A stretch of DNA of 64,000 nt, taken from NCBI RefSeq assembly GCF_003018115.1, contig NZ_CP027457.1. One strand, given 5' to 3'. Made by a program: the position numbers and the translations under genes. Positions 26,934 through 27,565 of this stretch are shown in pieces (within the stretch, counting starts at the first letter, position 1; every line of letters starts with the position of its first letter). The notes beneath the pieces are model-generated. The model saw only the letters and a program-made list of their open reading frames with translations, was not told the origin of the DNA and searched no databases. The stretch is from Escherichia coli. Lineage in GTDB: Bacteria > Pseudomonadota > Gammaproteobacteria > Enterobacterales > Enterobacteriaceae.

Positions 26934-27163
26934 CATTGCAACCCACCCCGCTTCACAGAATGCAGGGCAATACCTAGAGTTACCAGGCAGTGGTCAGGGG
27001 TTAAGTAGCCAGCCCGAGGCGTATGAACATGACGGCGGGAACACTTTGTATAACAGCGCAGCAGGTTTTTAGTTCCGCGGCCCGGCGTTAAGGGTAAATG
27101 AGGTCAACATGGATACGCTCAATCTTGGCAACAACGAATCTCTGGTATGCGGTGAGGTTGACG

Positions 27164-27565
27164 ATGGAATTTAAAGATTTACCAGTACCATTCCAGGAAA
27201 TGGCAGCGAATATAGTTCGTTCTCAACTGGCGACTCTTGACCTGAGTACCGTAGAAAAAGAAACCATCGATAATATATCCGGTAACGTGCGTCGAACCTT
27301 TATCGGGCTGTACGAAGAAAAGTGGCCATTCGGCGGACAAAATTCGCCTGAAAACAAGAATCAAGCGAATGATGAGAAGCTGAAACACGTTATCGCCTTA
27401 CTACTGGAAGATGCAAAACGTCTACAGCAACTGGAACCAAATGCAGGCACCGAAGCCCACATCTGGATTGCCATAGAATCACTCAAATGTGAAAGCGATG
27501 ATTATTTAAAAACCATAATTAAAACAACTCAGCTTTCTGAAGAGCTACCGAAGAAATTGCCATAA
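27164..27565 (+). CDS. 133-aa acidic orphan protein, first ORF downstream of PL
   Basis: ATG at 27164 with GGTGAGG 6 nt upstream. MEFKDLPVPFQEMAANIVRSQL... No family recognised. Low GC. Confidence 0.55.
   Translation: MEFKDLPVPFQEMAANIVRSQLATLDLSTVEKETIDNISGNVRRTFIGLYEEKWPFGGQNSPENKNQANDEKLKHVIALLLEDAKRLQQLEPNAGTEAHIWIAIESLKCESDDYLKTIIKTTQLSEELPKKLP

Follow-up and report, generated by a model that had tools for sequence, protein, structure and literature searches.

A conserved two-hairpin leader RNA at the start of the early-left operon of a Rac/Qin-type Escherichia coli prophage

The window analyzed here, a stretch of 64,000 nucleotides (nt) from the Escherichia coli contig NZ_CP027457.1, contains a prophage in which the leftward promoter PL is followed by a leader and by a 133-codon open reading frame, ORF133, the subject of an earlier note on this DNA. 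The locus is shown to be the 5' end of a presumably repressor-controlled early-left operon belonging to a lambdoid prophage of the Rac/Qin (dicBF) type that has no N gene. The first segment of its predicted transcript is a two-hairpin RNA of approximately 95 nt (26945-27039, plus strand) which, as judged from sequence comparison, is an abundant element supported by covariation, absent from Rfam and, according to a limited literature search, not described before. It is tentatively proposed that this RNA represents a new class of RNAs that act in cis and modify the host RNA polymerase, through processive antitermination or resistance to Rho, and that two unrelated phage lineages, the temperate Rac/dicBF-type prophages of Enterobacterales and the virulent K11/T7-like podophages, would use it for the first of their transcripts, a proposal that is regarded as possible rather than probable.

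Structure and covariation of the leader RNA

Comparison with phage genomes by BLAST revealed that positions 26927-27094 are conserved at 84-88% in many phages, where this stretch is unannotated, and that it is always found just 3' of the promoter on the repressor side, irrespective of which repressor and which downstream genes are present. The two-hairpin element lies within this stretch and begins approximately 5 nt after the predicted transcription start, which is near 26940. Stem-loop I (26945-27001) contains the helices P1a (26945-49 with 26997-27001), P1b (26954-56 with 26990-92) and P2 (26961-67 with 26983-89), and is capped by a conserved apical loop of 15 nt (26968-82, CAAUACCNNGAGUUA). 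The linker U-AAGUAG (27002-27008) connects it to stem-loop II (27009-27039), where CCAGCC (27009-14) pairs with GGCGGG (27034-39) to form helix P3 around a loop (27015-33) that holds GAGG and AUG. All of these parts are on the plus strand, and AAGUAG is present in all the prophage-type and T7-like copies seen, as well as in T7 and T3. The earlier note had described the leader as untranslated over about 230 nt. A leader is present, but its untranslated part is only about 170 nt long (from the predicted start near 26940 to 27108), and the first 100 nt or so are structured RNA.

The structure is carried by comparison among variants. In distant copies, which were collected among viral contigs and in genomes sampled at one per species, a long interrupted hairpin is retained, and its three helices change sequence yet keep pairing, while the CAAUACCNNGAGUUA loop and AAGUAG are fixed. 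An unsupervised MAFFT alignment of 13 variants gave 20 pairs with RNAalifold, 14 of them with compensatory double changes. In this alignment 89% of the cells are paired, versus 27-39% when the partners are slid by one to three columns, and none of 500 shuffles reached the observed covariation. A second alignment of 21 sequences (14 prophage-type and seven T7-like) showed double changes in 21 of its 24 pairs, including all 18 of P1a, P1b and P2, with 85% of cells paired versus 28-48% when slid and a covariation score of 0.61 versus at most 0.10 when slid, figures that are less safe than those from MAFFT and RNAalifold because this alignment was registered by hand to fit the proposed structure. 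P3 is the weakest helix, with 78% of cells paired and one fixed mismatch in the prophage type. It also changes in a compensatory manner, reading CCAGCC/GGCRGG in the prophage type, UCAACC/GGUUGA in K11 and UCAAGC/GCUUGA in the Dickeya phage Ninurta.

A search of the leader against Rfam 15 returned no family, even at E values up to 10 on 291 nt. Inspection by eye found no conserved complementarity between loop I and the tail that would form a pseudoknot. No boxA was found on the plus strand within three mismatches in 26900-27200, and the count of such sites over the whole window is at chance level.

Distribution in prophages

A covariance model of the element has a single match in the window (26935-27042, 105 bits). 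In E. coli K-12 MG1655 an unannotated copy with 105.9 bits is located in the Rac prophage, between the racR-side promoter and ydaG (locus L176, 7514-7621, minus strand), and the model finds no copy in K-12 Qin or in the immunity region of phage HK022. Among 5426 complete E. coli genomes, 3751 (69%) carry the element, at a total of 6759 places, and it is never annotated. It was also found in Pectobacterium, Serratia, Symbiopectobacterium, Winslowiella, Superficieibacter and Arsenophonus. The element occupies the same position behind the unrelated promoters of Rac, Evi and 666R9, so that its start some 5 nt after the predicted transcription start is seen behind four unrelated promoters.

One Symbiopectobacterium genome (loci L135-L175, Symbiopectobacterium purcellii and relatives) contains at least eight copies, which suggests that the genomes of these symbionts hold many Rac-type prophage remnants. 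Copies of the enterobacterial type were found in Actinobacillus phage vB_Apl-pPE4 (L007) and in contigs of metagenome-assembled genomes labeled Nanosynbacter and Collinsella (L164 and L165). The phage vB_Apl-pPE4 also has a duplicated DicF-like terminator region, Kil and exonuclease VIII, and the host or bin assignments of these three records look doubtful. In Pectobacterium zantedeschiae (L144, 6464-6595; also L011 and L174) a very basic open reading frame of 43-45 amino acids (...RMAQRLAQKARAQNSSKKWDAANR...) lies 3' of the element, and its KKWDAAN stretch may resemble the arginine-rich motif of lambda N (QWKAAN).

The same RNA in T7-like phages

Given that the first collections had been anchored on the tail of the element, a second search, of metagenomes, was anchored on loop I and AAGUAG only, and the presence of AAGTAG in the copies that it returned is by construction, since this motif was in the search pattern. 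The search uncovered a second type of the element on contigs that encode a T3-like S-adenosylmethionine hydrolase, the 0.7 kinase and a terminase. BLAST then placed this type in 417 phage records, namely Klebsiella phage K11 and 416 other Autographiviridae, among them Przondovirus, Berlinvirus, and Erwinia, Dickeya, Pectobacterium, Yersinia and Salmonella phages. In K11, the element lies exactly between two annotated promoters for the host polymerase, right after A1, and in K11-like, Berlinvirus, Erwinia and Dickeya phages it is located between the first and the second of these promoters.

The T7-like copies keep loop I and AAGUAG, while their helices are entirely different. P2 reads, for example, ACCAGA/UCUGGU, ACUAGA/UCUAGU, GCGG/CCGC or GAAGA/UCUUC, and P1a reads GAGAC/GUCUC versus CAGAC/GUCUG. 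T7 itself (L298, 498-600) and T3 (L299, 480-580) share AAGUAG and stem-loop II. Both also have, before the RNase III site R0.3, a boxA-like CGCUCUUUAACAA (810-822 in T7 and 780-792 in T3). More generally, the leaders of T7, T3, K11-like phages and Ninurta carry this canonical boxA downstream, at 60-150 nt after the element in K11-like phages and Ninurta, whereas the leader in the window does not. No described function was found in a limited literature search for this part of the T7-type leader, and no relevant description of a leader element came up for either Rac or T7.

A putatively repressor-controlled early-left operon without N

Positions 26100-28900 match prophages from Shiga-toxigenic and bovine E. 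coli (RM10466, O113:H21, O91:H21 and O22:H8) at 100% identity, and this exact arrangement is found in only nine of the 5426 complete genomes. PL (26905-26933, plus strand, TTGACG-17-TATATT) was correctly placed in the earlier note. It is the top sigma-70 match (10 of 12 positions) across 25800-33000, and it is located just 3' of an intrinsic terminator that follows the repressor gene (26857-26879, plus strand, recognized in a terminator scan by a 10-base-pair stem followed by a T run). The repressor gene itself (26191-26835) is divergent and cI/LexA-like, with HTH_3 and Peptidase_S24 domains, and on its other side lie a P22-Cro-like gene (25865-26092, minus strand) and then a gene of the YdaT family. 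Direct and inverted repeats (D1, D2, I1 and I4) extend across PL (26881-26935) in the manner of an OL operator and are shared with the cro/cI intergenic region (26102-26174). The families D1 and D2 are common to the two places, with AAAACTAARTATTYTTAKATT at 86% identity. These repeats look like operators of the prophage repressor, and given that they overlap the promoter, PL should be repressed in the lysogen.

The order of features in the window is leader, a crippled ydfA, ORF133, approximately 820 nt with DicF and its terminator, dicB, exonuclease, xis and int. In 107 non-redundant related contexts it is leader, YdfA (sometimes preceded by YdaG), variable cassettes, DicF, and then DicB with YdfD, or Kil, YdaE and RacC; the variable cassettes comprise YdfB, YdfC, genes with either of the two modules of ORF133 that are described below, and antisense genes such as sieB. 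A DUF1391 gene is thus the first or second after the leader, intact in relatives and a remnant in the window, as in operons of the dicBF/Rac type. The small RNA DicF with its terminator (28148-28199, plus strand) scores 62 bits against Rfam RF00039 (gathering score 48), and dicB (28387-28575, plus strand) scores 111 bits against the NCBIfam model CellDivInhibDicB (cut-off 100). The region 27566-28386 in front of dicB holds the DicF precursor region and DicF, with no plus-strand coding sequence in the annotation of the Prokaryotic Genome Annotation Pipeline (PGAP). Downstream of dicB lie a DUF1482/ydfD-like gene (28572-28760, plus strand) and a gene for an 823-residue exonuclease with an Rv2179c-like domain (28856-31327, plus strand), and the segment from dicB to the exonuclease gene matched PHROG 1092 and PHROG 2082.

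The operon thus shares with the Qin dicBF operon of K-12 (ydfA-ydfB-ydfC-dicF-dicB-ydfD-ydfE) and with the early-left operon of K-12 Rac (ydaG-ydaF-kilR-ydaE-racC-recET) a repressor, a promoter, a leader, a DUF1391 gene, small variable genes, DicF, DicB, a DUF1482 gene, an exonuclease and an integrase. It differs from Qin dicBF in that ydfA is internally deleted and ORF133 stands in place of ydfB and ydfC. Its repressor is of the cleavable LexA/CI type, as opposed to DicA in Qin and RacR in Rac. With DicF and DicB recognized at these scores and no homologue of N present, the suggestion that ORF133 occupies the slot of N had to be given up.

Two further observations were made in this part of the operon. 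The exonuclease stands in the position of recE, and it ends in an Rv2179c-like 3'-5' exoribonuclease domain (E value of 2e-67) at the C-terminus, rather than in a nuclease of the RecE type. The stretch 28197-28419 resembles STnc100/kilS at a sub-threshold score (36.8 bits versus 47 in Rfam).

Possible role of the leader RNA

Host RNA polymerase, starting near the predicted position 26940, would at once make the two-hairpin RNA. This RNA would act in cis on the polymerase that has just made it, and elongation would become resistant to Rho and to intrinsic terminators, leading to expression of the distal genes. In lambda, the same job is done by N and nut, and in HK022 by the put RNAs (putL and putR), antiterminators that act in cis and bind RNA polymerase. 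In every copy examined, no more than approximately 5-10 nt separate the element from the predicted start of the transcript that host polymerase makes first. Given that promoters and downstream genes are unrelated among the copies, the partner of the RNA would be supplied by the host rather than encoded by the phage. Read-through would be needed because both settings contain long untranslated stretches that are read by host polymerase. In the window these are the leader of about 170 nt and the 820 nt or so around DicF and its terminator, and in T7, T3 and K11 they are the 430-540 nt before gene 0.3. Rho-dependent silencing of kil has been reported for the left arm of Rac (PMC4150792).

The nearest known counterpart is putL of HK022, described as a two-hairpin RNA that directly follows the early promoter in a lambdoid phage without N (PMC9378689). 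Like put, the element in the window is placed immediately 3' of the early-left promoter in a lambdoid phage lacking an N-type antiterminator, folds into two stem-loops with a short linker between them and with unpaired bases that are conserved, and precedes a long operon that contains terminators (PMC9378689); the element is larger, at about 95 nt versus about 70 nt. Two features expected of a put-type RNA were found, namely a 5' position behind an early promoter, with starts that are predicted, and two stem-loops with covariation, of which stem-loop II is the weaker. The arrangement also recalls lambda N/nutL, in that a leader of some 170-220 nt separates PL from the first gene, an RNA signal lies near its 5' end and terminators downstream have to be read through. 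It differs from lambda in having no N homologue, arginine-rich motif or boxA, and in its hairpins, which are far larger than boxB.

A number of observations weigh against this proposal. The hand fitting of the larger alignment, already mentioned, is one of them, and the invariance of the tail is another, since it is partly by construction: most prophage-type loci had been gathered with a pattern located there. Folded as a single sequence, the leader as a whole does no better than its shuffled versions (z of +1.63). This argued at first against any structure, and the comparative analysis led to the view that the structure is local. T7 and T3 retain only AAGUAG and stem-loop II (13.9 and 19.4 bits, respectively), and their stem-loop I is different. 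BLAST found no sequence similarity between the element and HK022 putL, in line with the null result of the covariance model in the HK022 immunity region. Each phage has a single copy, the 64-kb window included, whereas HK022 has both putL and putR, and K-12 Qin is without the element despite having the same kind of operon. Finally, GAGG and AUG stand 9 nt apart in loop II of the prophage type, so that a role in translation is possible.

This last feature is the starting point of an alternative in which the leader RNA controls translation or stability, either as a 5' hairpin that protects against decay dependent on the 5' end, or through a short frame that starts in loop II at 27029 (AUG ACG GCR...), loads ribosomes early and couples them to ydfA. 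The start of the hairpin about 5 nt from the predicted 5' end would suit the former. For the latter speak the spacing of GAGG and AUG, a third codon that varies only at the wobble position (GCR, in peptides that begin MTA(V/G/T)), and the fact that in the window and in Rac the frame ends in the hairpin beside the ribosome-binding site of ydfA or ydaG. However, neither the length of the peptide (from six to 45 codons) nor the position of its stop is conserved, and the K11 type lacks GAGG and reads AGU or AAU where the canonical AUG would stand. A stabilizing hairpin would need neither an invariant loop of 15 nt nor an invariant linker, and what follows in T7-like phages is a further promoter instead of a gene. 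Control of translation or stability is held to be unlikely. A conserved leader peptide starting at the AUG of loop II was considered in its own right and, with its length and stop varying and its canonical AUG not conserved in the K11 type, was kept only as a minor part of this alternative.

It has also been considered that the RNA acts in trans after processing, as a decoy or inhibitor of a host factor or defense system, or as a regulatory small RNA, and would be the first product of an infection. Its presence at the start of the first transcript in unrelated temperate and virulent phages would fit such a role, as would the invariant loops, which are what a recognition surface would require, and the cutting off of the T7-like leader at the RNase III site R0.3, which is annotated in T3. 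No complementary target came to light, although no search aimed at one was made. The prophage type, by contrast, has no terminator or processing site directly 3' of the element, and a function in trans is considered distinctly unlikely. Of the roles weighed, the cis-acting one in antitermination is favored, at a level of confidence that stays well below even.

Decayed genes around ORF133

ORF133 was described in the earlier note as the first gene of the PL operon. It is preceded by a remnant of ydfA, a DUF1391 gene (27109-27174, plus strand), and the 107 related contexts start with YdfA or with YdaG and YdfA. Alignment to the near-identical locus L102 reveals a deletion of 109 base pairs inside ydfA, with the junction at 27152|27153, and ORF133 comes first among the intact genes because this deletion destroyed the usual first gene. 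The remnant consists of 21 codons and a stop, 15 of them native and six out of context, and reads MDTLNLGNNESLVCG followed by EVDDGI*, where the intact protein, found in the relatives L002 and L177, reads MDTLNLGNNESLVCGVFPNQDG... The stop of the remnant lies 8 nt beyond the ATG of ORF133, so that the two frames overlap and probably remain coupled in translation.

In front of the remnant, a second conserved block of the leader (27071-27108, plus strand) contains a small hairpin (CCC at 27081-83 with GGG at 27092-94) and the ribosome-binding site of ydfA. The hairpin pair reads CCG/CGG in loci L028 and L090, and this block is the only part of the leader that is common to K-12 Qin.

The neighbor on the other side has decayed as well. 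An antisense accessory gene of 57 codons (27646-27830, minus strand) is frameshifted by a deletion of 1 nt near 27790 relative to L102, leaving fragments of 24 and 26 amino acids in the window; it is intact as WP_001376375.1 in L177 (987-1160). The same slot is occupied in relatives by sieB or by a gene for a 69-residue protein. This antisense gene has a strong ribosome-binding site, and a promoter-like site is found at 27846-27819. ORF133 is therefore the sole intact gene between two decayed neighbors.

ORF133 as a conserved cassette gene

The call of a well-initiated reading frame was upheld: PGAP annotates the same coding sequence (27164-27565, plus strand, WP_000394555.1), and GAGG is located 7 nt ahead of the ATG. 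The product is not an orphan without a recognizable family, given that it matches PHROG 1363 with an E value of 5.2e-42 (residues 1-123 aligned to positions 1-118 of a profile of 139) and has 272 homologues in a collection of 5.8 billion proteins. The description of the protein as acidic, helical and low in guanine plus cytosine (GC) stood in most respects, with a GC content of 41.8% versus 50.9% for the window and a helical AlphaFold model, and its acidity is only mild (isoelectric point of 4.98 and a net charge of about -6). As far as the observations of the earlier note are concerned, then, the coordinates of promoter, leader and reading frame held, and the claims of an orphan protein, a first gene and a plain untranslated leader of about 230 nt did not.

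The full-length gene occurs in 167 of the 5426 complete E. coli genomes and its first 159 nt in 933. Relative to a lineage with approximately 88% protein identity, the ratio of nonsynonymous to synonymous substitution rates (dN/dS) stays at about 0.2 throughout the four segments compared, those of the linker and tail among them, and ORF133 is therefore a real coding gene under purifying selection. The length of 133 residues is kept between 76% and 98% identity, and the gene is also found behind a repressor of the RacR type.

Four parts can be recognized in the protein: module 1 (residues 1-54, 27164-27325), a linker (residues 55-68), module 2 (residues 69-113, 27368-27502) and a tail (residues 114-133). 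Module 1 recurs at the N-terminus of proteins of 110-212 residues with unrelated C-termini and corresponds to the additional PHROGs 6937, 2151 and 9419. Module 2, with the consensus NETELKHVIALLLEDAKRLQQxEPNAGTEARIW, is found in many stand-alone proteins of 50-140 residues, where the alignment starts at residue 2-3, and corresponds to PHROGs 30817, 12693, 32391 and 2982. ORF133 thus joins modules that are separate in other proteins, mosaic boundaries run inside its gene family, and PHROG 1363 and the PHROGs of the modules come with no function, structure or Pfam model.

Comparison with known families assigned no function to ORF133. ORF133 had no match in Pfam or NCBIfam at E values up to 1 and no sequence match in the PDB; module 2 had no profile match in the PDB, and a Pfam scan of ten relatives returned nothing. 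In the AlphaFold model, which fits the division into modules, residues 1-52 form a helical hairpin with a predicted local distance difference test score (pLDDT) of about 80, the linker (residues 54-71) is disordered at below 50 and the rest is helical at about 55 (mean of 61). The Foldseek search of this model against the PDB proved unusable, with a best E value of 0.76 and only generic helical bundles. The likeness of module 2 to the amphipathic helix of lambda CIII (LxDxxKRL...PG) was rejected, given an hhalign probability of 0.2%. ORF133 is thus a conserved cassette gene of the variable early-left region, and the phage family to which it belongs, as a quite ordinary member, is uncharacterised.

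The mosaic boundaries within the gene family, the existence of module 2 on its own and the disruption of both neighboring genes may suggest that ORF133 is a functionless fusion product, kept between recombination-prone conserved segments of a decaying prophage. The low dN/dS (about 0.2 across all segments, including linker and tail) speaks against this, as do the conserved length, the 167 genomes with the full-length gene and its occurrence behind RacR, and the fusion is judged improbable.

Possible role of ORF133

The best guess is that ORF133 encodes an immediate-early accessory protein. It would be made only upon loss of the repressor or upon infection, and it is read as immediate-early, rather than as an exclusion factor expressed in the lysogen, because it is co-transcribed with DicF, DicB and YdfD, which serve host takeover, from a presumably repressed promoter. 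A conserved helical N-terminal module, a flexible linker and an interchangeable second module are what a small helical adaptor would present, and ORF133 may, as a weak suggestion, act in this manner in host takeover or counter-defense, with a partner from the host or the phage. Against it stand the name 'hypothetical' given to every homologue, the poorly modeled C-terminal half of the protein and the possibility that the locus is eroding, since two neighboring genes have already decayed.

The earlier note had pointed to defense and exclusion functions, and a protein of prophage defense or superinfection exclusion that guards the lysogen was weighed as an alternative. The location of ORF133 close to the immunity genes, in a region of hypervariable cassettes, is compatible with this, as is its low GC content, which is typical of accessory genes of the moron type. 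Expressed DicB, from the same type of operon, is said in work of Ragunathan and Vanderpool from 2019 to protect E. coli against phages. However, ORF133 lies 3' of a promoter covered by operator-like repeats, co-oriented with it and separated from cI by a terminator. No conserved promoter of its own was found; the lone, weak match (9 of 12 positions, 26952-26980) falls inside the RNA loop, and its -10 element is not kept in other variants. PADLOC, at E values up to 1, found no family for ORF133 or for three of four relatives scanned, and the fourth, P0185, gave one weak match (PDC-S32, E value of 0.0059). The exclusion-type genes of relatives (sieB and those for the 57-residue and 69-residue proteins) are antisense and in the next slot. 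A defense protein of the lysogen is thus about as improbable as the functionless fusion. Of the interpretation offered in the earlier note, the hypervariable accessory region beside the immunity genes is supported, and the slot of N and a gene of the rex/sieB type are not.

That ORF133 might be an N-like antiterminator protein acting on the leader RNA was also weighed, since it lies behind PL and a long leader, as does N in lambda, and a conserved structured RNA is present in that leader. Its residues 1-22 (MEFKDLPVPFQEMAANIVRSQL) hold one lysine and one arginine and are net acidic, with no arginine-rich motif; no Pfam or NCBIfam family appears at E values up to 1, and the plus strand of 26900-27200 has no boxA within three mismatches. 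Moreover, the RNA element mostly occurs without a homologue of ORF133, in front of many different genes and also in T7-like phages. It is this distribution that largely refutes an N-like role, which is very improbable indeed.

Taken together, the joint explanation that accounts best for the locus is that of an N-less early-left operon in which the leader RNA serves antitermination and ORF133 is an immediate-early helical adaptor, an explanation that is plausible, though it falls somewhat short of being probable.

Implications

ORF133 alone matters little, as it adds but one gene to the uncharacterised cassettes of the variable early-left region. We know of no explanation of how N-less prophages of the Rac/Qin type express kil, dicB, recET, xis and int across stretches that are untranslated, sensitive to Rho and interrupted by terminators, and a conserved RNA at the start of the transcript is a concrete candidate for this distal expression. 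The copy in K-12 Rac makes laboratory tests of the element straightforward. K11-like phages are widely used against Klebsiella, and the fact that the element opens their A1 transcript may reflect a general takeover of host RNA polymerase by phages. If it is not an antiterminator, the element would still be an abundant structured RNA family missing from Rfam, and the leader RNA, rather than ORF133, is the part of this locus that is worth following up.

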